A DNA stretch of 14,330 bases from a virus (IMGVR_UViG_2695420809_000009:1-14330); one strand, 5' to 3'; positions 1 through 14,330 are shown, counted from the stretch's first letter. Translations and numbers: made by a program. Notes: generated from the letters alone by a model not told the origin.

Positions 1-258
1 ATGCAAACCGTTATTTTTGGTCGTCCAGGTTGCCCTTACTGTGTGCGTGCAAAAGATCTGGCTGAGAAATTGAGCAATGAACGCGATGATTTCCAGTATC
101 AGTATGTAGATATTCGTGCGGAAGGGATCACTAAAGAAGATCTACAACAAAAGGCAGGTAAACCCGTAGAAACCGTGCCGCAGATTTTTGTCGATCAGCA
201 ACATATCGGCGGCTATACCGATTTTGCTGCATGGGTGAAAGAGAATCTGGACGCCTGA
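1..258 (+). CDS. grxA: glutaredoxin 1
   Basis: 85-aa ORF starting at window base 1 with ATG; CPYC active-site motif (GRPGCPYCVRAKDL); near-identical to my recollection of E. coli Grx1; TGA stop at 256-258. Confidence 0.95.
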   Translation: MQTVIFGRPGCPYCVRAKDLAEKLSNERDDFQYQYVDIRAEGITKEDLQQKAGKPVETVPQIFVDQQHIGGYTDFAAWVKENLDA

Positions 259-267
259 TCGTCTGAC

Positions 268-300
268 AAGCCCTCGCGTTGAGGGCTTTATTGATTTTTT
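268..300 (+). terminator. rho-independent terminator after grxA (shared with convergent ybjM)
   Basis: Hairpin AAGCCCTC-GCGTT-GAGGGCTT (268-288) followed by TATTGATTTTTT; the ybjM stop on the opposite strand lies at the hairpin edge. Confidence 0.6.
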
Positions 301-665
301 CTGTGCTGTGGTTTAAACAAGCTACTGATAAATAAGAAACACAATGCCCCCAGCGCACACCAGAACACCGCACTTAATAACCATGCCAGCTCTTGCCAGA
401 ATGAGCGCGTCGGTGAAAAAAACAGCCGCATAATGAGCATCGAACAGGGTGCCGCCAGCATTGCGCCAAACAGAGGTTTCAGGACTTCTCTACGATGTGA
501 AAAGAAGCTGGCAACTGCACCAGGAAGAATGAAAAATAGCAAACCGATTTCAGGATGCCCGGCAGCCCGAAAAGCGCCTTTCATGTGCGTCGCCAGAAAA
601 AGACACACCACAATGAAGAGGACAAAACAGCAGATTGCCCCCGCCCAACGTTGTTTATGTTTCAC
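288..665 (-). CDS. ybjM: small inner-membrane protein YbjM
   Basis: 125-aa hydrophobic ORF convergent with grxA; matches my recollection of E. coli YbjM in length and sequence; position between grxA and ybjL as in E. coli K-12. Confidence 0.85.
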   Translation of the reverse strand: MKHKQRWAGAICCFVLFIVVCLFLATHMKGAFRAAGHPEIGLLFFILPGAVASFFSHRREVLKPLFGAMLAAPCSMLIMRLFFSPTRSFWQELAWLLSAVFWCALGALCFLFISSLFKPQHRKNQ

Positions 666-934
666 TCGTTCCTCCTGACACTGCGTCTATCGAACACATT
701 TTTCGCCAGTGTGGCGTTCAGTAAGATAAAGCCGCTTCGCATTCCATGCTAATATAGGCCAACGCAATTCATATAGCCGTTGATACCTAATGTGATTACA
801 CTAGTAAAATATATTGTTACTTTACTATCGTTTAGGTGCGCTGAATGAATCTGCGCCCTGAATTCTGGTAAAAAACATTATCGTAAATTACCATTTCTTT
901 CAACAGCTTACTAGTAAACAAGAAGTTAGCCTCC

Positions 935-2620
935 GTGAATATAAACGTCGCCGAATTGTTAAATGGGAATTACATTCTGTTATTATTTGTGGTCCTCGCG
1001 CTTGGGCTATGTCTCGGGAAATTACGACTTGGTTCGATCCAACTGGGTAATTCCATTGGCGTTTTAGTCGTATCGCTGTTATTAGGCCAACAACATTTCA
1101 GCATTAACACCGACGCGCTTAATCTTGGCTTTATGCTGTTTATTTTCTGCGTCGGGGTCGAAGCCGGACCGAACTTTTTTTCCATTTTTTTTCGCGATGG
1201 GAAAAATTACCTAATGTTAGCACTGGTGATGGTTGGCAGTGCGCTGGTGATCGCCTTAGGGTTAGGTAAGCTGTTTGGCTGGGATATTGGCCTGACGGCC
1301 GGTATGTTAGCTGGCTCTATGACGTCGACACCGGTTCTGGTCGGTGCTGGCGATACACTGCGTCATTCCGGCATGGAAAGCAGGCAGCTCTCACTGGCAC
1401 TGGATAATCTGAGCCTCGGGTATGCCTTAACCTATTTAATCGGTCTGGTGAGTTTGATTGTTGGTGCGCGTTACTTGCCGAAATTGCAGCATCAGGACTT
1501 ACAGACCAGCGCCCAGCAAATCGCCCGCGAACGTGGCCTGGACACTGATGCCAACCGTAAGGTTTATTTACCGGTGATCCGCGCCTACCGCGTCGGCCCG
1601 GAGCTGGTGGCCTGGACCGACGGCAAAAATCTGCGTGAACTGGGTATTTATCGACAAACTGGCTGCTACATTGAACGTATTCGACGTAACGGGATTCTGG
1701 CGAATCCAGACGGTGATGCTGTGCTACAAATGGGCGATGAAATAGCGTTGGTAGGCTATCCCGACGCCCACGCACGACTCGATCCCAGCTTCCGTAACGG
1801 CAAAGAAGTTTTCGATCGTGACCTTCTCGACATGCGTATCGTCACTGAAGAAGTGGTCGTTAAAAACCATAACGCCGTGGGCAAACGTCTCGCACAACTG
1901 AAGTTGACCGATCACGGTTGCTTCCTTAACCGCGTCATTCGTAGCCAGATTGAGATGCCGATAGATGACAACGTCGTGCTTAACAAAGGTGACGTTTTAC
2001 AAGTCAGCGGCGATGCCCGTCGCGTAAAAACCATCGCCGATCGCATCGGCTTTATCTCGATTCACAGCCAGGTCACTGACTTGCTGGCATTCTGCGCCTT
2101 CTTTGTTATTGGGCTGATGATCGGGATGATCACCTTCCAGTTCAGCACATTCAGTTTCGGCATGGGGAACGCTGCCGGGTTGTTATTCGCCGGAATTATG
2201 CTGGGCTTTATGCGCGCTAACCACCCGACCTTCGGTTACATTCCGCAGGGTGCATTAAGCATGGTGAAAGAGTTCGGCTTAATGGTGTTTATGGCAGGCG
2301 TTGGTCTGAGCGCCGGTAGCGGTATTAATAACGGCCTGGGCGCGATTGGCGGTCAGATGTTGATTGCCGGATTGATTGTCAGTCTTGTGCCAGTGGTTAT
2401 CTGTTTCTTGTTCGGTGCTTATGTATTGCGAATGAACCGCGCACTGTTATTCGGCGCAATGATGGGCGCACGCACCTGCGCGCCGGCAATGGAGATCATC
2501 AGTGATACAGCTCGCAGTAACATCCCGGCGCTGGGCTATGCGGGCACCTATGCAATCGCCAACGTCCTGCTGACGCTGGCAGGGACAATCATCGTCATGG
2601 TATGGCCAGGATTAGGATAA
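935..2620 (+). CDS. ybjL: putative AAE-family transporter YbjL (membrane domains flanking two central cytoplasmic TrkA-C-like domains)
   Basis: 561-aa ORF with GTG start at 935; hydrophobic N- and C-terminal blocks with a soluble central region; length and sequence match my recollection of E. coli YbjL. Confidence 0.9.
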
Positions 2621-2732
2621 AACTGAAGTTGCCCTGAAAATGAAATTTTTTTGCACAACCGCAGAACTTTTCCGCAGGGCATCAGTCTTAATTAGTGCCA
2701 CTGCTTTTCTTTGATGTCCCCATTTTGTGGAG

Positions 2733-2779
2733 CCCATCAACCCCGCCATTTCGGTTCAAGGTTGATGGGTTTTTTGTTG
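2733..2779 (+). terminator. candidate rho-independent terminator downstream of ybjL
   Basis: CCCATCAACC (2733-2742) pairs with GGTTGATGGG (2760-2769), followed by TTTTTTGTTG; the 17-nt loop is longer than typical. Confidence 0.5.
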
Positions 2780-2855
2780 TCTGAAATTTATGCCGTTTAA
2801 AATCATGACGTTAGAAGCACTGTTTTTTAACGATGGCGACAAAATGGCGGCAGCG

Positions 2856-3074
2856 TCAAAGAGAGAGCGCCACCTGTCCTGATTTCATTGGATGCGGCTG
2901 AACCGGATTTGACTCTTTTGGCGTTGCAATCGAACGAACAAAAGTTTCATGGGTTACAAAAGTATGGCTGCAGTTAATATTCTGGCACTGGTTGTAACGC
3001 TCTTTGGTCAATGAAGATACCTGAAAACTGCTGCGAGTATGGGCGGCACTTCCACACAGTGGGCAAATCATCAT
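2856..3074 (-). CDS. ogr: Ogr/Delta-type zinc-finger late-gene transcription activator
   Basis: 72 aa from ATG at 3074 (MMICPLCGSAAH...YNQCQNINCSHTF...); two Cys pairs as in P2 Ogr. The ORF track extends further upstream to a GTG, but the ATG at 3074 gives the Ogr-like N-terminus. Confidence 0.8.
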   Translation of the reverse strand: MMICPLCGSAAHTRSSFQVSSLTKERYNQCQNINCSHTFVTHETFVRSIATPKESNPVQPHPMKSGQVALSL

Positions 3075-3164
3075 TTTTCGAGTTCTCCCCATTTTTGCTA
3101 AATTCACAATAATGATACCGCATTATTCCATTTTGCAAACTTAAAAGTTCTCCATTGCGAAGAA

Positions 3165-4265
3165 TCATTCCATTTCGAAATCATCAATCCTCACTTCAAG
3201 CTCCAGACTGGTCGTAAAACCGTTATCCGGGCTGACGGTATGCGTCAGAGTCGTAATGGTCCATTCCGCATCATCTATCGGCTGTTTAAAACCACTGACC
3301 TTCACAGGCATTTCCGTGTAGAGATCTGCCCGCCCTTCTGCCAGTTGTAGCGAAAATGACGCAACGCCGCGTTGCAGGCGTTCCCACTGCATTTTCGCCG
3401 CTCGTTCGGCGTTGCTCCGGTTGGCATAAGTGCGATTAAGTACCAGCACGTTTTCATCCGTACCCACCAGGTAATCGCCCTGCTTCGCTTCTGGCTCTTT
3501 CTTCTGCTTCTTAGTTCTGCGCTTACGCTTCACCGTGGTGCTTTCTTTCTTCGCAGGTTCGCGGGTATGCAACCAGCTGGCAATTACGCCCGTGTAGGCT
3601 CCGCGATCTGCCAGGGTAAATCGGTGACTGTCGCCGTCCTTGCGTGTGATAGTGATCACTGGCAGAGGTTTACCAGTGGCGCTTTTGCCCTGCCCCTGCC
3701 GGATGAATAACAGATTGCCATTTTTCACCGACGCGATGGCACCGTACTGTCGCGCCAGCCGCATCAGAAAACTGCCGTCACTCTCATTAGTCTGGTCTAT
3801 ATGCTCCACGGGCTTATCCGACAGGTCTTTACCCAGTGCCATCTTCAGCTTGTGCCGCGCGGCTATTTCCTTCACCACTTCCCCGACGGTGGTCTTATGC
3901 CACGATTTTTCACGGCGGGTATTCAGCGTTTCCCGAAAATCAGCACTTCGCGCCCGGATAGTCAGGCGGTCCGGTGCGCCAGTGTGTTCAATCTCGTCCA
4001 CTGTGAATGCCCCTTTCGGGAAAAGCGGCTGCCCCTTCCAGCCCAGCGCCAGCGTAATAACCGCACCACGGCGCGGCAGCACGATTTTTCCGTCAGCGTC
4101 ATCCAGCTCCAGATCAAGCTGGTCCGCTTCAAAGCCCCGGTTATCCGTCAGCGTCAAACTCATCAGGCGGTTATCCAGCACAGTGGTGATATCCCTGCCC
4201 TCAATACTGATGCTGAATGCGGGAGTTTTGTTGCCTTTGTTAAGCAGTTCAGAGCTGAAATTCAC
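3165..4265 (-). CDS. P2 gpD-like tail protein (late control gene D family)
   Basis: 366-aa ORF; sits immediately upstream of ogr as in P2; GTG start at 4265 overlaps the stop of the preceding U-like gene, suggesting translational coupling. Confidence 0.85.
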   Translation of the reverse strand: MNFSSELLNKGNKTPAFSISIEGRDITTVLDNRLMSLTLTDNRGFEADQLDLELDDADGKIVLPRRGAVITLALGWKGQPLFPKGAFTVDEIEHTGAPDRLTIRARSADFRETLNTRREKSWHKTTVGEVVKEIAARHKLKMALGKDLSDKPVEHIDQTNESDGSFLMRLARQYGAIASVKNGNLLFIRQGQGKSATGKPLPVITITRKDGDSHRFTLADRGAYTGVIASWLHTREPAKKESTTVKRKRRTKKQKKEPEAKQGDYLVGTDENVLVLNRTYANRSNAERAAKMQWERLQRGVASFSLQLAEGRADLYTEMPVKVSGFKQPIDDAEWTITTLTHTVSPDNGFTTSLELEVRIDDFEME

Positions 4266-4747
4266 GACAGCAGCCCTCCCACCGTTTTACTGATATCGCT
4301 TAAGGCAGACGTTGCCGTGTCCTGCAGATTATTCAGTTGCGCACTGAGATCACCGAACATATCGGACAGGGATTCATCCACTCGTTTGAGCGACAGGGTG
4401 AACTCAATCCGGCGCGGCATACCGTCGCGGAAAAACTCCGTTTTAGTCTGATTCAGTCCCTCAATCACATACATGCCGTAAATCGTGCCGCTGCCTTCAA
4501 TCAGGGGCCATGCTTTCCCCTGTTCTGCCATCTGCTCCAGTGCCAGCAACGACAGCCTGCCGCCTGTTATTTCCGGCATAAGAACACCGGAAAGCGTCAG
4601 CATGTCGTTTTCCGGTCCCAGAAACTGCGTGGACGGACGTCGGTTTACCCGACTGTTTGCCGCATGTCGCCAGCTGCGTTGATACTGCAGTTCCTGATAC
4701 GGAACGGTGCGCAGCATAAACACGTACAATCCCAGCACCATCATCAT
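4262..4747 (-). CDS. P2 gpU-like tail protein
   Basis: 161-aa ORF starting MMM; length and position (between tape measure and D) as in P2; start overlaps the stop of the upstream fusion ORF. Confidence 0.8.
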   Translation of the reverse strand: MMMVLGLYVFMLRTVPYQELQYQRSWRHAANSRVNRRPSTQFLGPENDMLTLSGVLMPEITGGRLSLLALEQMAEQGKAWPLIEGSGTIYGMYVIEGLNQTKTEFFRDGMPRRIEFTLSLKRVDESLSDMFGDLSAQLNNLQDTATSALSDISKTVGGLLS

Positions 4748-6411
4748 GCGTCGTATCCCCCCTGATCGCTGTAGTTACTCCTGGCTTTTGCCTTCAGCCT
4801 GCGTTCACGTTCATCAAGCTGGCGTGCCACCTCCCGCGCAATATCCTGCGCACTTTGTCCTGGCTGCGTCTGAATGATGATCTGCGTCGGTGCCTCAATC
4901 CGTTGAACGAGCGGCACAGTGGCTGCGCGACTCACAATTGCTTCTCCACCTTTCGCGGGAAGTGCCAAAGGGTGCAACGGTGGAAGCTCTGCTGGCGCGG
5001 CAGCAACGCCCATCATTCCGGCAACAACGGCAGCCAGTGCAGCTGTATTTCTCCGGCTGGTCACATTTGCCGGGCCGTTAACAATTTCCGGCCCGTTTTC
5101 ACCGACGATGCCAAACTGCCCGCGCGGGATATACCCGCCGCTGTCATACATCCCCGCAAAGCCATATCCCCATGATGGAAAACCACCCGATGGCATCATC
5201 ACTTTACCGTCTGCATTCACCGTCGCAGGTTGCTGACGCGTCACGCTTTCCGGCAGTTTTGCCTTTGCGGCCTCTTTACTGACAATGCCGAGCTTCTCCA
5301 GCAACCAGGAAACGCCGGATTTCAGGGAATCCAGCGGATGCATGACCATATTCAGCCCTTCCGCCAGTGCCTCCCCGAATCGCCGCCCCATTGCCGCTGC
5401 GCTCTGCAGTTCGGCAGAGGTCGACTTAACGGGCGTCAGCAGATCAGTAAACCAGCCCCACAGCGCCTGCACTTTGTCGCCAATCCACTGGAACACGGGC
5501 TTAAGCGGTTCGAACGCTGCACTGATGGGACCTGCCGCCGCTTTGAATCCTTCCACCACGCCACCGAGAAATGCGGTGATGGATTGCCAGTATTTCCAGA
5601 CAACCAGCGCCACGCCCGCCAGTGCAGTAACCACAAGACCTATCGGACTGAGCAGAGCACCTAACAGACCAGATACCGGGTCCTGCAGATCCCAGAACAC
5701 ATCAGCAGAAATTCCGGTGACACCGTTCACGCCCACGTTGGACAGGCTTTTGTGCCATCCAGTCTGCTCATCAATTTTGGCGCGCAGACCGAGCGCACGG
5801 GCGGTGGCATATGCCGTTGCTTCGGCATTCAGCACCGTGTCCCAGCCAGTAAAGTCAGGCCAGATCAGCATCCCTTCGCGCTGGCTGAAGTTTTCGCGGT
5901 AAGTGATCGCCTCCTGCACTGTCTTGCAGCCATACGCTGACAGGTAAGCAAACCCACGCAGGCTTTGCGCCACGCTCAGCAACTCAGTAGCTACCGCCTT
6001 GGTGTCGTGGCCTGGCACGCCGAGAATGCGCGGTTTAACGCCGAGCTGTGACTGGGCAGATAACAGGGCTTTCATACCTGTTTTTTTACCTTCAGCAGTC
6101 ACTGCGCCGATGATATTGGTCGTGGTTTCTTCTTCCGTTTCACCCTGCGGCACACGCACAACAACGGTCACGGGTTTTGCCTGGTCAGCGATGGCATCCA
6201 GCGAGCGGGCCAGTGTGCCGGACTCACCCGCTTTACCGCTGGCAGTCAGCACATCAGTGATCAGCACGGGTTTATTAAGAGGAAACATTTTTGCATCGGC
6301 ATCATCGCCCGTGCAGACCATCCCCACGATGGCGGTGCTCACCGTGGTAATGGATCGGGTGCCTTCGTTGACTTCAACAACGCGCACCCCGTGGTGGTAA
6401 TCCTGAGCCAT
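4744..6411 (-). CDS. in-frame fusion: N-terminal ~240 aa of a P2 FI-like tail sheath protein joined to the C-terminal ~310 aa of a tape-measure (gpT-like) protein; likely a deletion derivative
   Basis: N-terminus (MAQDYHHGVRVVEVNEGTRSITTVSTAIVGMVC...) matches my recollection of the P2 sheath N-terminus. After about residue 244 (around nt 5680) the sequence switches to a hydrophobic and Ala/Gly-rich tape-measure-like C-terminus. Strong AGGAGG Shine-Dalgarno upstream of the ATG at 6411. Confidence 0.7.
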   Translation of the reverse strand: MAQDYHHGVRVVEVNEGTRSITTVSTAIVGMVCTGDDADAKMFPLNKPVLITDVLTASGKAGESGTLARSLDAIADQAKPVTVVVRVPQGETEEETTTNIIGAVTAEGKKTGMKALLSAQSQLGVKPRILGVPGHDTKAVATELLSVAQSLRGFAYLSAYGCKTVQEAITYRENFSQREGMLIWPDFTGWDTVLNAEATAYATARALGLRAKIDEQTGWHKSLSNVGVNGVTGISADVFWDLQDPVSGLLGALLSPIGLVVTALAGVALVVWKYWQSITAFLGGVVEGFKAAAGPISAAFEPLKPVFQWIGDKVQALWGWFTDLLTPVKSTSAELQSAAAMGRRFGEALAEGLNMVMHPLDSLKSGVSWLLEKLGIVSKEAAKAKLPESVTRQQPATVNADGKVMMPSGGFPSWGYGFAGMYDSGGYIPRGQFGIVGENGPEIVNGPANVTSRRNTAALAAVVAGMMGVAAAPAELPPLHPLALPAKGGEAIVSRAATVPLVQRIEAPTQIIIQTQPGQSAQDIAREVARQLDERERRLKAKARSNYSDQGGYDA

Positions 6412-6487
6412 AGCGGCGAACCTCCTGATTGGATTAGGCTTCGCCCTATGTTGAAGTGATTGTGCCCGACAAACAGCTAAGTGTAGT

Positions 6488-6505
6488 TGTACAGTTATTC
6501 ACACA
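6488..6505 (-). promoter_or_regulatory. candidate Ogr-dependent late-promoter dyad (TGT-N12-ACA)
   Basis: TGTACAGTTATTCACACA-type dyad, TGT at 6488-6490 and ACA at 6503-6505, in the 142-bp gap between pin and the sheath fusion gene, centred about 85 bp upstream of the ATG at 6411. Chance occurrence of a 6-base match is not negligible. Confidence 0.3.
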
Positions 6506-6553
6506 AAATGACGGTATTTGTCTGCTTGCAGGGATAATCAAAATTATGCTGAT

Positions 6554-7120
6554 TCAGGGGGATTCATTGCTCTTATTTGCCGGAAATTTTCTATAAATGG
6601 TAGAAACGCCCACATCAAAAATCAGTGCAATACGCTGTCTTGATTCTCCGGCCTCGAGTAAACGTCCAATCTGTGCCCACTGTTCGGTGGTCAACTTAGG
6701 ACGGCGTCCACCTACTCTGCCTTTGGCGCGAGCTGCAGCAAGCCCCGCCCTGGTACGTTCAACTATCAGTTCGCGCTCCATTTCAGCCAGGGCCCCCATG
6801 ACATGAAAAAAGAAACGTCCCATTGGGGTACTGGTATCAATACTGTCAGTCAGGCTTCGGAAATTCACGCCACGCTGGCGCAGATCTTCTATCAGCGTAA
6901 CGAGATGCCGCATACTGCGCCCCAACCTGTCCAGCTTCCAGACAACCAGAGTGTCACCTGCCGATAATGTCCTGAGCAGTTTTTTCAGTCCCGGTCTGTC
7001 GGACTTAGTGCCACTGATTTTGTCCTCAAAAATCCGCTCACATCCCGCGCAGTTCAGTGCATTACGTTGCAAATCGGTGTTCTGGTCATTTGTTGACACG
7101 CGTACATAGCCAATAAGCAT
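6554..7120 (-). CDS. Pin/Gin/Hin/Cin-family serine DNA invertase (copy 1)
   Basis: N-terminus MLIGYVRVSTNDQNTDLQRNAL with catalytic serine context, plus C-terminal HTH; closely resembles my recollection of e14 PinE. Start taken at the ATG at 7120 (MLIGYV) rather than the ORF-track start at 7126. Confidence 0.9.
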   Translation of the reverse strand: MLIGYVRVSTNDQNTDLQRNALNCAGCERIFEDKISGTKSDRPGLKKLLRTLSAGDTLVVWKLDRLGRSMRHLVTLIEDLRQRGVNFRSLTDSIDTSTPMGRFFFHVMGALAEMERELIVERTRAGLAAARAKGRVGGRRPKLTTEQWAQIGRLLEAGESRQRIALIFDVGVSTIYRKFPANKSNESP

Positions 7121-7201
7121 GATCAATCCCCTGAATAAAAACCGGGGATGATGCCAGTTAGTCGTAATCGCTGCATTTTCTTAAACGTTGGTTTGAGAGA
7201 A
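7083..7201. repeat. left arm of inverted repeat (pin 5' end, leader, crossover site)
   Basis: Manual alignment: 7083-7201 matches the reverse complement of 9042-9160 with about 10 mismatches over about 120 bp; similarity continues outward through both pin genes and ends inward exactly at the crossover sites. Confidence 0.75.
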
Positions 7202-7822
7202 GGTTCATTTGGGTTCAGAAATCTGGTTGCCTTCACAACGGCTGGAGTAACAAGCTGGACTGTTCCTGAAGAGTTGCGCAAAGGAAGAAAATGTTACGTC
7301 AAAGTTATTGGTGGCGGTGCGTCAGGAGGGATAGGTTCAACAACCGCTTCAGCCGTTACATGTGGCGGAGGAGGTGGTGGGGGCGGAGTTGCTGAGGGGC
7401 TGGTAGATTTAACTGGTATAAACAGTGTTTCGATTACGGTTGGTACCGGTGGTGCGCCTGTGTCTGGTATTTCTGTAAACGGTAAAAATGGTGGCTCGAG
7501 CAGTTTCGGGACTTACATGTCAGCTTCCGGAGGCTATAGCGGAGGCCAGCCTTCCGGAGGGTTAGGCGCAGTTGGTGTCGGGGGAACAATTAATATATCG
7601 CTTGGGCCAGGTTCTCCAGGTTCCATTGCTTCTGCCGCATCGGGAGCTGGTAATGGTGGTTCTGGTGGTGGCCCCGGAGGAGCAGGTTCATTCAGAGATA
7701 CAGCTAACGGAAAAGCGGTATCAGCAGTTGGGCCTGGAGGTGGCGGAGCTGGATTATGTCCTAATTCATCAACGGGTCAGTCGGGTGCCGGAGCAGATGG
7801 CGCAGTTTATATTTACTGGTGA
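7148..7822 (+). CDS. tail-fibre variable C-terminal segment, glycine-rich (no constant N-terminal part present)
   Basis: 224-aa ORF beginning MMPVSRNRCIFLNVGL inside the repeat arm; in-frame TAA three codons upstream of the ATG; long Gly/Ser-rich body; reads into the invertible segment. Confidence 0.6.
   Translation: MMPVSRNRCIFLNVGLREGSFGFRNLVAFTTAGVTSWTVPEELRKGRKCYVKVIGGGASGGIGSTTASAVTCGGGGGGGGVAEGLVDLTGINSVSITVGTGGAPVSGISVNGKNGGSSSFGTYMSASGGYSGGQPSGGLGAVGVGGTINISLGPGSPGSIASAASGAGNGGSGGGPGGAGSFRDTANGKAVSAVGPGGGGAGLCPNSSTGQSGAGADGAVYIYW
7176..7201. other. 26-bp hix/gix/cix-like crossover site (left)
   Basis: TTTTCTTAAACGTTGGTTTGAGAGAA, an imperfect palindrome with AAACC/GGTTT half-site cores; sits at the boundary between the repeat arm and the divergent interior. 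Confidence 0.65.
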
Positions 7823-7829
7823 GGTTCAT

Positions 7830-8000
7830 ATGTGGGCAAGAATTGAAGAAAATAAAGTAGAAGAGATAACGGAAATTAATCCTGAAGGAAGATTCCATCC
7901 ATCATTAATATGGAAAGAATGCCCTGCTGACACACAGCAGGGGGATTTATATATTGATGGTGAGTTTATTGCGCAGTCTCCGGCAGTTCAGGCCAGATAA
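7830..8000 (+). CDS. small 56-aa ORF downstream of the Gly-rich fibre segment, possibly a truncated tail-fibre assembly gene
   Basis: ATG at 7830 preceded by GAGG; sits where a partner chaperone gene would be expected; its 3' end overlaps the convergent tfa gene. No recognisable motif, so this call is weak. Confidence 0.3.
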   Translation: MWARIEENKVEEITEINPEGRFHPSLIWKECPADTQQGDLYIDGEFIAQSPAVQAR

Positions 8001-8574
8001 CATCCGGCGCGGTGCTGGTATCTGTTGCCGTCACCGCGTCAATGTAATCCAACACCGTGTTAAGTCGGCTGGTTTCTGACTGCGTCAGATTCCGTCCGGC
8101 CTGTAATTTCAGCTGAATCAGACTAATGGAAGCCATTGCAGTATCAATCAGTGACTGACGCTGTGCTTCTGCCGCGTCTACTGCGGCGCTATGCTGTGCC
8201 TCAGTATCGGTCACCCATTTCTCACCATCCCATTTATCGTATGGCGTTAATGGGGCGATAGTGGTTGTATTTTCGGGGTGATCACCCGGTGCTGTGATTT
8301 CTTTGGCATCTCCCGTTTCGGTGTTATAGACGATTTCACCGCGATGGTCTGGCACATATTCCCATGAATTTAAATCTACAGAACGGCAAATTGTATAACC
8401 AGCCTTATATGTACCAGGAGCGTCTAAACAGGAATATGCTGGAATACCGACACCCACTGCAAGATATTCAGTTGATGCAGAAATATATTCCCGAGTTTCA
8501 CCATCGTAGTTATAGACGGTAATATTCCCCGCCTTCGTGGCAATAAACTCGCTATTTAATACTGCGTTATCCAT
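7966..8574 (-). CDS. tail-fibre assembly chaperone (Tfa family)
   Basis: 202-aa ORF ending ...DTSTAPDVIWPELPETAQ, the conserved Tfa C-terminal motif; ATG overlaps the stop of the upstream fibre segment (TAATG). Confidence 0.8.
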   Translation of the reverse strand: MDNAVLNSEFIATKAGNITVYNYDGETREYISASTEYLAVGVGIPAYSCLDAPGTYKAGYTICRSVDLNSWEYVPDHRGEIVYNTETGDAKEITAPGDHPENTTTIAPLTPYDKWDGEKWVTDTEAQHSAAVDAAEAQRQSLIDTAMASISLIQLKLQAGRNLTQSETSRLNTVLDYIDAVTATDTSTAPDVIWPELPETAQ

Positions 8575-9095
8575 TATGCAGCCCTTACGATAAAGTTAAA
8601 TGCAATATTTCGTGGACGGGTCTCACTCCCGCCAGTATTACCGATACTCCCTCGTGAATGAAGTGTCGGTGATGGGATCAGACTCCCTCCTGTATTTGTG
8701 GCATCAAGTCCCCGTCCTTGTGTGTATGTTTTTTTGAAAATCGTAGCCAGTTCCCATTCATCTTTTGTGTCGTAACCATCATTGGCAACAACAATATGGC
8801 GGTGTTTTTCCAGCATCCCAGCCTGAAGGCTCAATAAAGCACGTCCAGCATCAATACCACGCCCGTCATCCCAGCCACGAATAAACTCACCACGTAAATC
8901 TGGCAATTTATTTGTCGGGTAAGCCTTTGCCAGTTCCGGGTATTCTTCAGCAGAAAAAGCTGCTCCGTTGCATTTCAGCCAGCCTGTTGGCGGAGTGGCT
9001 GAAGGCCACGGAACAGGGACACCAACAGGTAATGCAGAGCCTTCTCCCAAACCAACGTTTAAGAAAATGCAGAGATTATGGCTAACTGGCATCAT
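8574..9095 (-). CDS. tail-fibre variable C-terminal segment with tail-collar-type receptor-binding motifs
   Basis: 173-aa ORF beginning MMPVSHNLCIFLNVGLGEG; motifs PVPWP...GWLKCNGAAF...LPDLRGEFIRGWDDGRGID are typical of Mu/P1/e14-type fibre distal domains; the crossover site lies in codons about 10-18. Confidence 0.75.
   Translation of the reverse strand: MMPVSHNLCIFLNVGLGEGSALPVGVPVPWPSATPPTGWLKCNGAAFSAEEYPELAKAYPTNKLPDLRGEFIRGWDDGRGIDAGRALLSLQAGMLEKHRHIVVANDGYDTKDEWELATIFKKTYTQGRGLDATNTGGSLIPSPTLHSRGSIGNTGGSETRPRNIAFNFIVRAA
9042..9067. other. 26-bp hix/gix/cix-like crossover site (right)
   Basis: TTCTCCCAAACCAACGTTTAAGAAAA, in inverted orientation to the left site and differing from it at one position. 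Confidence 0.65.
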
Positions 9096-9160
9096 CCCCG
9101 GTTTTTACTCAGGGGAATGCTCATGCTTATTGGCTATGTCCGCGTATCAACAAATAACCA
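9042..9160. repeat. right arm of inverted repeat
   Basis: Reverse complement aligns to 7083-7201 (see left arm). Confidence 0.75.
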
Positions 9161-9677
9161 GAATACGGAATTACAGCGTAATGCGCTGGAGTGTGCAGGA
9201 TGTGAGCTGATTTTTGAAGACAAGATAAGCGGTACAAAGTCCGACAGACCAGGACTGAAAAAGCTGCTCAGGACATTATCGGCAGGTGACACGCTGGTGG
9301 TCTGGAAACTGGACCGACTGGGGCGCAGTATGCGGCATCTTGTCGTGCTGGTGGAGGAGTTGCGCGAACGAGGCATCAACTTTCGTAGTCTGACGGATTC
9401 AATTGATACCAGTACCCCAATGGGGCGCTTTTTCTTTCATGTGATGGGTGCCCTGGCTGAAATGGAGCGTGAACTGATTGTTGAACGAACAAAAGCTGGA
9501 CTGGAAGCAGCTCGCGCACAGGGACGAATTGGTGGACGTCGTCCCAAACTTACACCAGAACAATGGGCGCAGGCCGGGCGATTAATTGCATCAGGCGTTC
9601 CTCGCCAAAAGGTGGCGATCATCTATGATGTTGGTATATCGACACTGTATAAGAAGTTTCCGGTCGGAGATAAATGA
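9123..9677 (+). CDS. Pin/Gin/Hin/Cin-family serine DNA invertase (copy 2)
   Basis: 184 aa from ATG at 9123 (MLIGYVRVSTNNQNTELQRNAL...); roughly 85% amino-acid identity to copy 1 by eye, so the two are diverged rather than recently duplicated. Confidence 0.9.
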   Translation: MLIGYVRVSTNNQNTELQRNALECAGCELIFEDKISGTKSDRPGLKKLLRTLSAGDTLVVWKLDRLGRSMRHLVVLVEELRERGINFRSLTDSIDTSTPMGRFFFHVMGALAEMERELIVERTKAGLEAARAQGRIGGRRPKLTPEQWAQAGRLIASGVPRQKVAIIYDVGISTLYKKFPVGDK

Positions 9678-9719
9678 AACCGTAGCACGTCGTATGCAAG
9701 AAGATCGTGCTGCGGTTTA
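9678..9719. terminator. stem-loop between convergent pin copy 2 and the GIY-YIG gene
   Basis: AAACCGTAGCACG ... CGTGCTGCGGTTT, a 13-bp stem with one G-T wobble and a 16-nt loop; no clear U-tract on either strand. Confidence 0.3.
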
Positions 9720-9737
9720 TGCTTATCACTTAAAGAC

Positions 9738-10607
<870 letters not shown>

Positions 10608-10687
10608 CTAAGTCTTTGAATTTACATAGTACAAAAAAGATACTTTTCCTCATAATGTGAATTAATTTTATGTTTCGTTTGATGATT

Positions 10688-10753
10688 GGACCGGTCTCGA
10701 AAACCGGAGTAGGGGCAACTCTACCGGGGGTTCAAATCCCCCTCTCTCCGCCA
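10688..10753 (+). other. 3' fragment of a tRNA-Ser(CGA) (serU-like) gene, an integration-site scar
   Basis: GGACCGGTCTCGAAAACCGGAGTAGGGGCAACTCTACCGGGGGTTCAAATCCCCCTCTCTCCGCCA: anticodon arm with CGA anticodon, long variable arm, T-arm and CCA end; no 5' acceptor or D-arm sequence upstream. Confidence 0.7.
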
Positions 10754-11335
10754 CTTTATCAATGACTTATCTCCCGACTTCCCGCCTTGCTTTTCCTAAA
10801 CAGAACAATCGTAGAATATTCTTGAAGGGTTAGATCGTCACTGTTTTCTGTTCGATACTGTGACATTCAGCACTTGATTCGCTATGGATCTGACAGGAAG
10901 GTTTCGAGCGAAAATCTGCAGTTATTCAGTCGTTTTCTTATCGGTCACCATTATTCTTTTAGACATTGATCCTACAAAGCTGCCGCAAAGTTGGTGGTGG
11001 GAACTGAAGTTGCGTAGAGAAGGGGTCAATACCCGGAGGCAAACATGGGCTGGCAAAAGTGTAGCGGTATTAGGCGCAGCTATTTAGCCTAGTTATGTTT
11101 TATGAAAACTTGATATCATATAAGTGTCTTACTTATTGGCTGTAAATAAGTTTTTCCTAAGGAATTGTTTCTTGAGTATCATTTGTAACTGTAACGGAAT
11201 TTATAATCCTTTGCTTTATTGTTACGGTATTTTTTATCACACCCTATTTTTAGTGGTTTTTTATACTGAAGTTTGGCAAAGTGAACTTTATATACATATA
11301 CTTCATCCTAGTTTCAGTTAAATTGGGTGGATGAT

Positions 11336-12079
11336 ATGGCAACTACATGTTCAGTTATATTGATTTTGGAGTCCTTTGATGTTTATTTCGGAAAAGAGAG
11401 TGTGTTTCTGGAGAGAGGTTCATCTGTACTTGTCGACTCTAGCTCTAGAGATTTTTTCCTGACATATCCTGAAAGAGTGATAGTGGCGGATTTTGGCGCT
11501 GAGTTTATTAGTCGCTATTTGAAAGCTAATAACTTAAGGGATATTTCTGATTGTAGGGAATATCCATCTTATTTAAAAATAAACTTTGCTGACTTCAGTT
11601 TAATTAAAGGATTAATTAGTTGGGCTAATCACTGTGCTGAATACATAGAAATTTTTGATGAGTCTATTGCTTTTACATGTCTCTCTGCATTTTCTTCTGA
11701 AAAACAATTTGGAGTATTTCTGTTTGGATGTTTGAAAAGCACAGGGGCTAAAGTTAAAACGATTATTCATACGGATTTATCTGCACCATGGCGTCTTAAG
11801 GATATATCATCAAGATTATATCTCAGCGAAAGTTTACTAAAGAGGAAATTGAAAGAAGAGGGGGTATCATTCAGTAAGATCATACTTGATGAGAGGATGC
11901 AAATGGCTGAATATTTACTCAGCACTCGTTGTTATCCTATTAGTAAAGTAGCTAAGGTCTGTGGTTATGCCAGTGTCTCATACTTTACTTATGTATTTAG
12001 ACGTTATTTTGGTGTTTCTCCAAGTCAATACTCTCAGAGGAGTTCAGAAAGTAAAATTCTTACTCACCAGGGAATCTGA
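11336..12079 (+). CDS. AraC/XylS-family transcriptional regulator, AppY/EnvY/Rns-like
   Basis: 247 aa from ATG at 11336, preceded by GGTGGA; N-terminus MATTCSVILILESFD resembles AppY; C-terminal double HTH signature (WRLKDISSRLYLSES...VAKVCGYASVSYFTYVFRRYFGVSPSQY); AT-rich codon usage. Confidence 0.8.
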   Translation: MATTCSVILILESFDVYFGKESVFLERGSSVLVDSSSRDFFLTYPERVIVADFGAEFISRYLKANNLRDISDCREYPSYLKINFADFSLIKGLISWANHCAEYIEIFDESIAFTCLSAFSSEKQFGVFLFGCLKSTGAKVKTIIHTDLSAPWRLKDISSRLYLSESLLKRKLKEEGVSFSKIILDERMQMAEYLLSTRCYPISKVAKVCGYASVSYFTYVFRRYFGVSPSQYSQRSSESKILTHQGI

Positions 12080-12087
12080 TCATTGTT

Positions 12088-12545
12088 CTTGCCCCCTTAT
12101 TTCCAGACAGGGGGTGTATCTTAAGTTAACGTTACCCGCTGACGTCGATATTCTCGCGGAGAGCGATAACCCAACGCACTGTGCGGATGGTTTTCATTGT
12201 AATGTTCGATCGCCACTGCAAGATTATGCAATGCCGTTCTTACATTCGGTTTCGGCATGAACGCGATGTAGTCTTCCTTCATCGTTTTCACGAACCTTTC
12301 TGCAATTCCATTACTCTGAGGACTGCTGATTGCCGTTGTGCAGGGCTCCAGATTCAACTCTCTGGCGAACTGCCGTGTTTCATGCGCTCTATACGCTGAA
12401 CCGTTATCTGTCAGCCACTGGATGGACTGTTCCGGTACTTTATCGCCAAAGCGTTTTTCTATCGCTCCTAACATGACATCCTGCACTGTCGCTTTATCGT
12501 AACCTCCCGTGCTTGCGGCCCAGTCTATGGCTTCACGATCGCAAC
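12088..12545 (-). mobile_element. IS2-like (IS3 family) element remnant, 3' portion only
   Basis: Reverse complement of 12088-12120 resembles the IS2 right terminal repeat (...TGTCTGGAAATAAGGGGGCA); the transposase-coding match stops abruptly near 12545. Confidence 0.6.
12121..12486 (-). pseudogene. IS2-like transposase (InsD/OrfB) C-terminal fragment
   Basis: 121-aa ORF (...[25 protein letters not shown]...[20 protein letters not shown]...[14 protein letters not shown]) aligns to the C-terminal third of IS2 InsD as I recall it; the catalytic N-terminal two-thirds are missing. Confidence 0.7.
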
Positions 12546-12833
12546 AGTCCAGGGCGATTCATCTGGGCCAATCCTTGCTCATAACAGGCATTCACTTCAG
12601 TCATGGCAGAAAGGTATGCATGCTGGAGAAGTCGTGAAAGAAAAGAAGACTGCTGCGCCGTTTGTCGTCACGTTTATCTTCATTGGCTATGCAAGTCGTA
12701 ATACAAGGTGGGACAAAACTGAGACACATAAGGCCTCGCAATGGCTTGCAAGGCTTTACATGTTTTGATGTGGTGGGACGTGTGAGCGCAGTGTTGATGG
12801 GGTAATGCTTTGAATTAGAAGCGGATTCTTATA

Positions 12834-12878
12834 ATTCGTAATGCGAAGGTCGTAGGTTCGACTCCTATTATCGCACCA
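12834..12878 (+). other. 3' fragment of a tRNA-Thr(CGU) (thrW-like) gene, an integration-site scar
   Basis: ATTCGTAATGCGAAGGTCGTAGGTTCGACTCCTATTATCGCACCA: anticodon loop with CGT, T-arm and CCA end; one base shorter in the acceptor 3' strand than my recollection of thrW; no 5' half upstream. Confidence 0.6.
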
Positions 12879-13032
12879 TTCTAACGTCTCCCCAAGTCTA
12901 CTCAAGTATTTAAAAACCTCTTATAATCAGTATATTAATGCCCCTTTTAGTCTTTTGACGTCTATTTAAGTACCCCAAACTCTACAAGCAATTGAGGGGA
13001 TTTGCTGTTCAGTTTAGTGGAGATACCCCCAA

Positions 13033-13371
13033 GTGAAACTCAATGCCCGTCAAATAGACACTGCCAAGCCAAAAGAGAAGGCTTACAAGTTGGCTGATGG
13101 TGGTGGTCTGTACCTCCTGGTAAAACCTGGTGGAGGAGAATATTGGCGTCTCAAGTATCGTGTAGCTGGTAAAGAGAAGCTGTTAGCACTAGGTGTGTAT
13201 CCTGAGGTCACCTTAGCTGATGCTCCTGCAAAACTTGAAGAAGCTAAAAGAGGTATCTCTGGGGGAATCGATCTGATGGAAGTGAAGCGAGAGGAAAAGA
13301 TTGCCCGGGAAACGCAGTTAAACAACACCTTCAAAGATATTGCCCTTGAGTGGCACAGTAACAAATTATAA
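13033..13371 (+). pseudogene. P4-type tyrosine integrase, N-terminal fragment only
   Basis: 112-aa ORF (GTG start) with the N-terminal arm-binding signature AKPKEKAYKLADGGGLYLLVKPGGGEYWRLKYRVAGKEKLLALGVYPEV; stops after about 110 aa where full integrases run to about 400 aa; lies directly 3' of the tRNA-Thr fragment. Confidence 0.75.
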
Positions 13372-13805
13372 TCACAATAATAGTGTATATAATTATACAT
13401 TGTATGCTTGGTAATCATATAATGATAAAAGCTTCCGATAATCAGTATGAGATTTGTCCTTAAACTCCGGGACATGCTTTTCTAAATCTTCCAATGGTAT
13501 ATGTCCATTTATACAAATAAAATTCTAGTGATAAATACCTTCAGGTATGATTAGACAACATCTTTATTCGATGGGGGTTAATCTATATTTGATATCTTTC
13601 TTTTAAATAACAACGCCATTAAAAACGCTTTGTTTAATGACGTTTTTTTATTGTTTCCTATATAAAGCCTAACCAGCATAAACATTGGTGGCTCTTATGC
13701 TCATTGTAATTAAATGAGAGTGTGATTAATGTCTTTATATATTCTGGTAGTTATTCTCTCCAGAAGAATACATTGTAAGAAGATGACTGTTAGCATGTTT
13801 TAACA

Positions 13806-14300
13806 TCAATTAACATTAAGGTTTGATAATAATTTTTTGTTGGCGAGTTCAAATGTTTTCATTTCATCATCTGATAGCCCGCTCCAGATTTTCTTTAGCA
13901 TTACATTTTGAGTGTTTATTAGTTTTTGAGCAAGTGTAACTCCGTCAGGGGTTAAGCAAATACTTTTGCTTCGACGATCGTTTTTATTATTAATTCTTTT
14001 GGCAATATTCTTTTTTTCTAATTTGTCTATGATGTGTGTGATGTTTGTTTTGGAGAATTGTAACTCCTTGTAAATATCAGAAGGGGACTGACAATAATCA
14101 TCAGACATATATAATGAAACTAACACCATAAATGTTGAAGTGTTTATTCTATACTCGCTCAATTCATTTTCTATAATACTCTGGATTTTGTCATTTACTC
14201 TAATATATAAGTGTATTAACAGACTCTCCTGAGCCGGGTATGCCGGATTTTTGATTTTTTTGTAGTTTGTTATAGTTTTTAATAAATCTATATTATTCAT
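13806..14300 (-). CDS. MarR-family (winged-helix) transcriptional regulator
   Basis: 164 aa from ATG at 14300, preceded by GGTGGA; central DRRSKSICLTPDGVTLAQKL resembles the MarR/SlyA wing region; strongly AT-rich; the ORF-track start at 14330 is at the window edge. Confidence 0.55.
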   Translation of the reverse strand: MNNIDLLKTITNYKKIKNPAYPAQESLLIHLYIRVNDKIQSIIENELSEYRINTSTFMVLVSLYMSDDYCQSPSDIYKELQFSKTNITHIIDKLEKKNIAKRINNKNDRRSKSICLTPDGVTLAQKLINTQNVMLKKIWSGLSDDEMKTFELANKKLLSNLNVN

Positions 14301-14330
14301 AATTCCACCACACGGCAAAAGAAAACTCAT

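Follow-up and report, generated by a model that had tools for sequence, protein, structure and literature searches.

Organization of the locus

How does a tail-fibre cassette come to lie between two invertase genes, and does such an arrangement exist in the bacterium? The question is raised by the window analyzed here, a stretch of 14,330 nucleotides of viral DNA (IMGVR_UViG_2695420809_000009:1-14330). In this window an intact pin gene is found on each side of the cassette, which agrees with a sequence-only reading that had described both flanks as invertase-side. The deposited contig matching the window at 100% is CYEN01000001.1 of assembly GCA_001284385.1. The double-invertase arrangement is present in this deposited contig; its presence in the bacterium is a separate question.

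The two genes, pin1 (6554-7120, minus strand, 188 aa) and pin2 (9123-9677, plus strand, 184 aa, annotated pinE), are both full length and intact. They encode small serine recombinases of the Pin type, with an N-terminal catalytic domain (Resolvase) and a C-terminal HTH domain (HTH_7), and are transcribed outward, away from the cassette between them. The proteins are identical at 153 of 181 residues (85%), in line with the difference of about 15% that had been read from the sequence. Together with their upstream flanks, the pin genes form a 548-nt imperfect inverted repeat (6659-7206 and 9037-9584, 82% complementary), whose arms are separated by 1830 nt.

Between these genes lies a standard Pin/Gin-type invertible tail-fibre cassette, with two alternative tips and a chaperone. 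It measures 1,868 bp from core to core (7188-9055) and encodes a Gly-rich fibre tip (up to 7822, plus strand; Gly_rich_2 in Pfam), a 115-aa ORF (7653-8000, plus strand), a tail-fibre assembly chaperone (7966-8574, minus strand; Caudo_TAP in Pfam) and a Collar-domain fibre tip (8574-9053, minus strand; Collar in Pfam). The outward-facing fibre ORFs, 7148-7822 on the plus strand and 8574-9095 on the minus strand, begin within the pin-proximal flanks (MMPVS...). The cassette is bordered by two mutually inverted 26-bp crossover sites of the Hin/Gin/Pin type, each composed of two 12-bp half-sites around a central dinucleotide: TTTTCTTAAACG-TT-GGTTTGAGAGAA on the left (7176-7201) and TTCTCCCAAACC-AA-CGTTTAAGAAAA on the right (9042-9067). 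The repeats of the e14 P segment are quoted as TTGGTTTGGGAGAAGG / CCTTCTCCCAAACCAA (PMC12529663); over the inner 16 nt, the right site matches them exactly and the left site shows 1 mismatch.

The content of the cassette is as expected for a Hin/Gin/Cin/Pin system, but the constant region that should read in opposite the invertase is absent. No fibre constant region was found on either side of the cassette, whether within the window itself or in locus L006, which extends it, and the earlier observation that the variable fibre segments have no constant N-terminal part upstream therefore holds for both. Such a read-in occurs at every reference locus for either half of the window, and reference genomes have these variable fibre parts joined to constant parts measuring about 94 aa or 340 aa. 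With a second invertase gene in place of the constant region, neither fibre tip would be expressible in this contig.

The resemblance to the e14 P segment/Pin, Mu G segment/Gin and P1 C segment/Cin systems extends to the small Resolvase + HTH_7 serine recombinase, the inverted 26-bp sites, the two opposed fibre tips with a chaperone in the cassette, and the mode of reading in, in which the fibre constant part enters through the site (LGL-R/G-EGS motif). Unlike those systems, this contig has the invertase gene of a second prophage where the fibre constant region belongs.

Origin of the two flanks

The left flank had been read as P2-like. Indeed, pin1, the invertase of a P2-like prophage, and everything leftward of it form the end of such a prophage beside ybjL. 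Annotated relatives (L001, L008) and Pfam assign 2856-6411 (minus strand) to the right end of a defective P2-like prophage beside ybjL/RybB, comprising ogr, D (3165-4265), U (4262-4747) and an in-frame sheath::tape-measure fusion (4744-6411), all on the minus strand. The fusion corresponds to a 3,591-bp deletion with its junction at 5675/5676, and it is through this deletion that the prophage copy is defective. The deletion was found in no complete genome; hence there is no closed relative of the lineage for comparison. A same-lineage draft assembly that shares the 3.6 kb deletion (L012) matches window positions 1-9058 at 99.956% in a single collinear piece, and then runs into the P2 H constant region. 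The block 5676-7182, containing pin1 and the sheath gene, is 100% identical only to P2-like references with this cassette, the other references showing 96.4-98.7%. Many P2-like prophages encode an identical pin1 protein; among the matches listed, the H fibre constant region invariably lies across the cassette from it. The D protein of the window has matches in 11,164 blocks, mostly from unrelated genomes.

The right flank, in which the same reading had seen different cargo, does carry it: pin2 and everything rightward represent the end of a Mu-like-tailed prophage, of which pin2 is the invertase. This second prophage is HK97-headed and adjoins the GIY-YIG/AraC and thrW/vat/yagU region. The cargo and island to its right (9738-14330) extend from a LEM-3-like GIY-YIG gene (9738-10562, minus strand) to MarR, which adjoins vat (13806-14330, minus strand). 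They also include an AraC regulator (11327-12079, plus strand), an IS3-family fragment (12121-12486, minus strand) and a P4-type integrase arm fragment (13033-13371, plus strand). The integrase fragment has matches in 46,171 blocks, again mostly from unrelated genomes. The pin2 block (9068-9700) is 100% identical to five references (L004, L005, L011, L014, L017), all with the order ymfQ-stfP(constant)-cassette-pinE. This level of identity is restricted to second-prophage references with this cassette, those with other cassettes being 98.2% and 95.4% identical. Over 7183-12880, the window is 99.8% identical to L004, L005, L011 and L014, where ymfQ and the stfP constant region precede this segment.

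The inverted repeat of the pin regions might also have arisen locally, if a single prophage had duplicated its invertase gene in inverted orientation and the two copies had since diverged. The 548-nt, 82% repeat is the only observation that favors such an event. Against it, pin1 and pin2, taken with their flanks, show 100% identity to pin genes from two different prophage types that are otherwise unrelated, and everything beyond pin2 belongs to another chromosomal locus. We attach almost no probability to this explanation, and a tandem or inverted pin duplication was rejected since each pin block is 100% identical to a separate prophage type. The view that the pins are no tandem duplication is thus upheld, each belonging to a different prophage. 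So is the attribution of the flanks to two prophages, as each half of the window matches a separate prophage type and locus.

The cassette is common to both prophage types

Base by base, the cassette interior is identical in P2-like references (L010, L012, L016) and in Mu-like-tail references (L005, L009), and BLAST mismatch counts indicate that it is likewise identical in L004, L011 and L014. The sole exception is a window-private SNP at 7596. The normal P2-like haplotype and the normal second-prophage haplotype have 7188-9055 in common, with no difference between them in this stretch. Second-prophage-type references part from the window at 7187, immediately beyond the TT core of the left site, and P2-like references part from it at 9056, immediately beyond the AA core of the right site.

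Since the cassette is common to both normal haplotypes, no crossover point can be mapped. Moreover, the window contains no novel junction sequence: each of its halves corresponds to a normal haplotype already known, and the overlap between them is an exact repeat present in both. A junction at the central TT of the left site, leaving a 'hybrid' site, had been considered from L001 and L004; it was dropped because the left site of L012 is identical. The claim that the event was site-specific is therefore not supported by the comparison, each half being a normal haplotype with no mappable crossover point between them.

Geometry of the two loci

The relative position of the two loci can be read from Z1323HEC0423, a complete genome carrying both prophages. 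The loci lie ~631 kb apart, with both pin genes on one strand. The plus strand at 3.117-3.130 Mb matches the left half of the window; for the right half, the match is on the minus strand, at 3.754-3.759 Mb. The flanks are thus found at separate loci in a collinear relative, in the relative orientation that an inversion would explain. With the window halves on opposite strands of loci ~631 kb apart, inversion is the only viable rearrangement giving the junction. The prophages themselves were said to be in inverted orientation; this was wrong, as they have the same orientation, with both pins on one strand. The mutually inverted pair is that of the recombining sites, namely the invertase-side site of one prophage and the fibre-side site of the other. 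Because the required sites are mutually inverted, recombination between them inverts the segment rather than deleting it. A deletion was rejected on this ground and on the ~631 kb separating the loci in Z1323HEC0423. A deletion is also disfavored by the many essential genes in the interval, which on the K-12 map runs from about 0.30 to 0.89 Mb; on these positions the inverted segment would fall within one replichore.

If the contig is correct, a Pin-family invertase may have recombined the sites of two unrelated prophages ~0.6 Mb apart and inverted the chromosome between them. Strand exchange would take place at the central dinucleotide, between the fibre-side site of one prophage and the invertase-side site of the other. 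Such an event would yield pin1-site-cassette-site-pin2 at this locus and, at the far endpoint, constant-site-cassette-site-constant. The geometry is in exact agreement: two prophages with same-strand pins ~631 kb apart supply the flanks, and the window halves match opposite strands of Z1323HEC0423. Both pin1 and pin2 are intact, and invertases of the Pin family act in trans on sites in other prophages (PMC12529663), which also argues for such an exchange. Fibre-segment 'translocations' have been reported among P2-like and Mu-like prophages in long-read ST131 genomes. It is possible to locate the haplotype switch at a site core, either 9055/9056 or 7187/7188; however, this core-precise boundary is undiagnostic, as both normal haplotypes contain the entire cassette. 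Similarly, the presence of an identical cassette in unrelated backbones, with identity ending at the site cores, would fit movement via the sites, but the linkage with pin blocks suggests instead that cassette and pin move together as units. The join is further limited to one draft contig, being absent from 5,426 complete genomes and from the same-lineage L012. Wild-type Hin and Gin invertasomes need Fis and an enhancer, which in such systems lies in the 5' portion of the invertase gene, and synapse sites within one plectonemic domain. Given these needs, recombination over 0.6 Mb should be very rare, and an intra-replichore inversion (on the K-12 map positions) should be counter-selected. A site-specific inversion thus appears quite unlikely.

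The same ~0.6 Mb inversion could have been produced by RecA-dependent homologous recombination between identical 1.87 kb cassettes, with no need for an invertase. In E. coli, large inversions between kb-scale inverted repeats such as IS elements, rrn operons and prophages are well documented, and one of ~700 kb is flanked by ~1 kb repeats (PMC4272514). Here, the two parental haplotypes share 1,868 bp of perfect identity, and cassettes oriented as in L012 and L004 would be mutually inverted on the chromosome. However, independent support is absent to the same degree as for the Pin-mediated event, and the resulting sequence would be indistinguishable from that of the other explanations, so that nothing in the window favors this one. 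The intra-replichore inversion (again on K-12 map positions) would also be expected to cost fitness. We consider the homologous route very unlikely, and a real ~0.6 Mb inversion, by Pin or by homologous recombination, is unlikely even when the two routes are taken jointly.

Support for the join in other assemblies

The join is known from one draft contig, and related assemblies are broken at the cassette or normally arranged. CYEN01000001.1 belongs to a multi-contig draft and measures 596,576 bp. The ybjL-side ~313 kb of this contig correspond to an entire sister contig, CYDW01000005.1, which terminates ~65 nt into the cassette. Of the five contigs carrying the lineage-specific fusion protein, four group with the form broken at the cassette. 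Among the matches listed, long contigs with the same cassette or the same pin1 protein have the normal layout throughout, and the remaining matches fell into groups with these. No independent sighting of the join was made among lineage assemblies (L012 being normal) or the 5,426 complete genomes. Indeed, the flanks were placed together in none of these 5,426 complete E. coli genomes (0/5,426), where the best coverage of the window in a single place was 62%. A genome with the reciprocal junction would also hold the double-pin junction, which is absent from the same collection. A literature search found no mention of the assembly accessions. Thus, the claim that an inversion occurred is not supported, with a cassette (7188-9055) that is identical in both prophage types and a join seen in one draft contig.

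The join is probably false or unsupported, and made across a collapsed repeat. As the linkage with the pin1 and pin2 blocks indicates, both parental haplotypes natively include the cassette, and two copies are therefore expected in the source genome. From this sequence comparison we infer that the cassette is present there twice. Both prophages of the source genome would then carry the same cassette, and 1.87 kb of exactly repeated sequence would occur at two positions ~0.6 Mb from each other. In the draft, the copies would have been collapsed into one and crossed by a single route, entering at the pin1 flank and leaving at the pin2 flank. Left and right flanks can be paired in four ways, two of them wrong, and this route would be one of the wrong ones. 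Between identical copies, read pairs that fall short of the cassette length would link alike whether the segment is inverted or not, so the contig leaves a low prior for the inversion unchanged. GC skew cannot discriminate either, because a chimera and a recent inversion share the same sequence. In other genomes each prophage has the canonical layout of constant region, site, cassette, site and invertase. The double-invertase arrangement most likely reflects a contig join that is chimeric, or in any case unsupported, rather than an arrangement within the cell.

Several points count against a collapsed repeat. The window-private SNP at 7596 is simpler under a single-copy cassette. Co-residence of both haplotypes is undocumented in the complete genomes of the collection, and two exact cassette copies in one genome were found in no complete genome of that collection. 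Finally, trans-acting invertases (PMC12529663) make a real inversion mechanistically possible.

The join shares several characteristics with repeat-induced chimeric contigs. It crosses an exact repeat, whose length probably exceeds that of the library insert, without a novel junction, and related assemblies break at the same node. As in such cases, the repeat is often a stand-alone contig of <2 kb: the cassette lies on a contig <2 kb in 62 of 225 collection blocks, and is generally hard to assemble. Documented large inversions were established with closed genomes, PCR or mate-pair data (PMC4272514), whereas the present one would be based on one draft contig.

Significance and relation to known cassettes

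If the join is an artefact, invertible fibre cassettes that co-resident prophages have in common form exact repeats, which a draft assembly is unable to thread, and 'unusual' cassette arrangements are not to be taken as biology without spanning reads.

If it is real, the locus would be one endpoint of a ~0.6 Mb inversion between prophages sharing a 1.87 kb repeat, to be compared with the large prophage, IS and rrn inversions. A phage invertase or a shared cassette would then have rearranged ~13% of the E. coli chromosome. A correct contig would imply an orphan cassette trapped between two invertase genes, and a reciprocal cassette entered simultaneously from two different fibre constant regions. 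This would represent the first of two steps in an invertase-driven swap by which co-resident prophages exchange host-range cassettes, and a concrete intermediate for the movement of such cassettes between unrelated prophages. Such a swap could explain the occurrence of the same 1,868-bp cassette, identical as far as the site cores, in unrelated backbones. A real join would extend known mechanisms and constitute no new kind of system, with moderate interest for phage evolution and genome structure.

Phase-variable P2-like fibre loci are known in EPEC E2348/69 (PMC4272514). As in E. coli P2-like invertible cassettes of this type, the invertase lies between the sheath gene and the H/G fibre genes, and when the window's right half is attributed to the other prophage, no difference from them is left. 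Active flipping is shared with them as well, the sister assembly having the cassette in the opposite orientation next to pin1.

Organization of the double-invertase region

Two intact serine-recombinase genes, each encoding Resolvase and HTH_7 domains, flank the invertible tail-fibre cassette (7188-9055): pin1 on its left (6554-7120, minus strand, 188 aa) and pin2 on its right (9123-9677, plus strand, 184 aa). They lie on opposite strands with diverging transcription, and their products are 85% identical across 181 residues. Together with their upstream flanks, both genes form a 548-nt inverted repeat, the arms of which are 82% complementary and 1830 nt apart. The stretch between the genes is delimited by two crossover sites of Hin/Gin/Pin type, each 26 bp long and inverted relative to the other, at 7176-7201 (TTTTCTTAAACG-TT-GGTTTGAGAGAA) and 9042-9067 (TTCTCCCAAACC-AA-CGTTTAAGAAAA). 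The inner 16 nt match the e14 P segment repeats quoted in PMC12529663 exactly at the right site and with 1 mismatch at the left site.

The cassette contains genes for two fibre tips, one glycine-rich and one with a Collar domain, and for a tail-fibre assembly chaperone, as well as a small ORF. Both tip ORFs start within the flanks next to the pin genes and lack a constant part; reference genomes have these same tips joined to constant regions via a site-encoded LGL(R/G)EGS motif. Thus, the sequence-only reading described the region correctly, as two invertases flanking a cassette that lacks a fibre constant part. Recombinases, sites and cassette content are those of canonical members of the Hin/Gin/Cin/Pin inversion family. 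However, the fibre constant region opposite the invertase, present in all references of each half, is absent only in this contig.

Origin of the two flanks

As had been proposed, the flanks derive from two different prophages, each matched in references. On the left, the cassette adjoins the right end of a P2-like prophage located next to ybjL and the RybB sRNA. From grxA-ybjM-ybjL at the left end of the window, the order continues with ogr, D, U, an in-frame sheath::tape-measure fusion and pin1. In normal copies of this prophage, the H constant part, then I, J, W and V, lie beyond the cassette. The RybB gene (2700-2778, plus strand; Rfam RF00110, 105 bits) sits between ybjL and the ogr end, indicating that the prophage is integrated directly beside it.

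The fusion gene (4744-6411, minus strand, junction at 5675/5676) fuses a P2-type tail sheath, of which the N-terminal ~245 aa remain, to the C-terminal portion of the tape measure. A deletion of 3,591 bp gave rise to it, taking out the remainder of the sheath together with the tube gene, E/E' and the greater part of T; no microhomology was found at the junction. The fusion renders the P2-like prophage defective and marks the lineage. Its protein cluster has 3 members (3, 1 and 19 contigs), and the deletion was found in none of the closed genomes.

The identical 188-aa pin1 protein occurs in 1,264 blocks of the collection. Beside it, the ten displayed P2-like prophages (L019-L028) carry many different cassette contents, with gp53-like, Collar and Gly-rich tips and one or two chaperones. 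In these ten, one invariant invertase is backed by a striking diversity of cassettes.

On the right, the cassette adjoins the terminal part of another prophage, one whose head is of the HK97 type and whose tail is Mu-like. Its order is baseplate J, YmfQ, StfP constant region, site, cassette, site and pinE (pin2 in the window), beyond which lie a LEM-3-like GIY-YIG gene, an AraC regulator and an IS3-family fragment. Some strains further carry a P4-type integrase fragment, MarR and vat, adjoining yagU.

Comparison with reference haplotypes

Positions 1-9058 of the window gave a single collinear match (99.956%, 4 mismatches) to a P2-like locus of the same lineage (L012, GCA_023370635.1), which has the same 3.6 kb deletion and runs beyond the match into the P2 H constant region. 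Positions 7183-12880 matched four second-prophage loci (L004, L005, L011 and L014) at about 99.8%; in these, the StfP constant region precedes. The two haplotypes overlap across the whole cassette and are mutually identical over 7188-9055. P2-like references part from the window at 9056 and second-prophage references at 7187, just outside the central dinucleotides. Judged from these alignments, the window holds no junction sequence between the haplotypes. A breakpoint at the left site core, derived from a more distant P2-like reference, was withdrawn.

Across 7188-9055, the window differs from all references only at 7596, where a private T replaces C (Thr to Ile in the glycine-rich fibre tip). 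It may represent a genuine private SNP, a single allele from a two-copy repeat that was collapsed, or a sequencing error, the surrounding stretch being G-rich.

For the pin2 block (9068-9700), 100% identity is reached only by second-prophage references bearing this cassette; those with other cassettes reach 98.2% and 95.4%. Similarly, the block comprising pin1 and sheath (5676-7182) reaches 100% only with P2-like references bearing the cassette (96.4-98.7% for others). Since both pin alleles are linked with the cassette, both parental haplotypes natively include it. A genome with both alleles should, by this reasoning, contain two exact copies of the 1.87 kb sequence. Local duplication of a pin gene is extremely improbable, and is excluded by each pin block being 100% identical to references of a different prophage type.

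The exact cassette was found in only seven complete genomes, apparently as one copy in each. The 1,868-bp sequence is base-identical in three unrelated prophage backbones (L004, L005, L009-L018): P2-like at ybjL, Mu-like tail beside GIY-YIG/AraC, and a Mu-like prophage near trp. Identity stops precisely at the central dinucleotide of each crossover site, and the adjacent pin allele is co-inherited in each backbone. Such co-inheritance suggests that the exchanged unit is the cassette plus invertase module rather than the cassette alone.

Geometry and support of the join

The complete genome Z1323HEC0423 holds both prophages, each in normal layout. The left half of the window maps to its plus strand (3.117-3.130 Mb) and the right half to its minus strand (3.754-3.759 Mb); the two pin genes share a strand and are separated by about 631 kb. 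Therefore, joining pin1 and the cassette to pin2 needs an inversion between the two cassettes. Deletion was rejected as the origin of the join because the recombining sites are mutually inverted in this genome. The strands thus fit the inversion suggested by the sequence-only reading, but the prophages themselves are co-oriented and not inverted: the mutually inverted pair consists of one prophage's invertase-side site and the other's fibre-side site. We take the interval to correspond roughly to 0.30 to 0.89 Mb of the K-12 map, in one replichore and with many essential genes, a further argument against deletion.

The window is 100% identical to CYEN01000001.1 (596,576 bp), a contig of the multi-contig draft GCA_001284385.1. 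About 313 kb on its ybjL side equal the full length of contig CYDW01000005.1 of a sister assembly (GCA_001283865.2). That contig ends about 65 nt into the cassette (L007, 1-65) in flipped orientation, with the opposite cassette end beside pin1; the segment therefore flips in this lineage. The site at its tip, AAACTTTTTTTTTGGAGAAGG, shows a series of G-to-T errors of the kind common at low-quality contig ends. The lineage-specific fusion protein is found on 5 contigs of the public collection, 4 of which group with the broken form while one reads through. Of 225 blocks in the collection, 62 have the cassette on a contig of its own, below 2 kb in length. All long contigs displayed with this cassette or with the identical pin1 protein have the canonical layout, and undisplayed ones are grouped with those.

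If the cassette is present twice, paired reads spanning less than 1.87 kb would link its left end to both pin1 and the StfP constant region, and its right end to both the H constant region and pin2. The same links would be expected from a normal and an inverted chromosome, so that the contig would carry no evidential weight and the posterior would equal the prior. Hin-family invertases act under topological constraints; given these, the likely cost to fitness and the lack of any case in closed genomes, the prior for inversion is low. The join would be informative only with a single-copy cassette, which the linkage data make unlikely. We therefore regard a chimeric or unsupported contig join as probable, and the arrangement with two invertases is most likely not real.

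The two flanks occurred together in none of 5,426 complete E. coli genomes, where the best single-place coverage of the window was 62%. This absence and the likely fitness cost argue against either form of real inversion. Pin-mediated inversion between the sites of the two prophages, which also faces the topological constraints, is unlikely, although Pin-family enzymes act in trans on sites of other prophages and PinQ, PinR and PinE each invert the e14 P segment (PMC12529663). Inversion by RecA between the two identical copies of the cassette is about as unlikely, even if mate pairs and PCR have confirmed a ~700 kb inversion flanked by repeats of ~1 kb (PMC4272514). With a window made of two normal haplotypes sharing a cassette, no junction, and closed genomes without the join, site-specific inversion between the prophages is not supported.

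Long-read ST131 genomes have been reported to show rearranged fibre segments among P2-like and Mu-like prophages (bioRxiv 10.1101/2022.05.07.487787). Were the inversion real, it would be a variant of already known prophage-bounded inversions, leaving this locus with an orphan cassette and the opposite end with a cassette entered by two constant regions. A second exchange at the other site pair would swap cassettes between the prophages; speculatively, such a two-step swap could explain why unrelated backbones share an identical cassette.

Island beyond pin2

Low-GC cargo and an island occupy 9738-14330, including the LEM-3-like GIY-YIG gene, the AraC-family regulator (GC about 0.33), an IS3-family integrase-core fragment and MarR. 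The P4-type integrase arm fragment of the island (112 aa) is extremely common and always located beside MarR-vat-yagU. ARAGORN detected no intact tRNA in the window; tRNA-like 3' fragments are visible by eye at roughly 10.8 and 12.9 kb.
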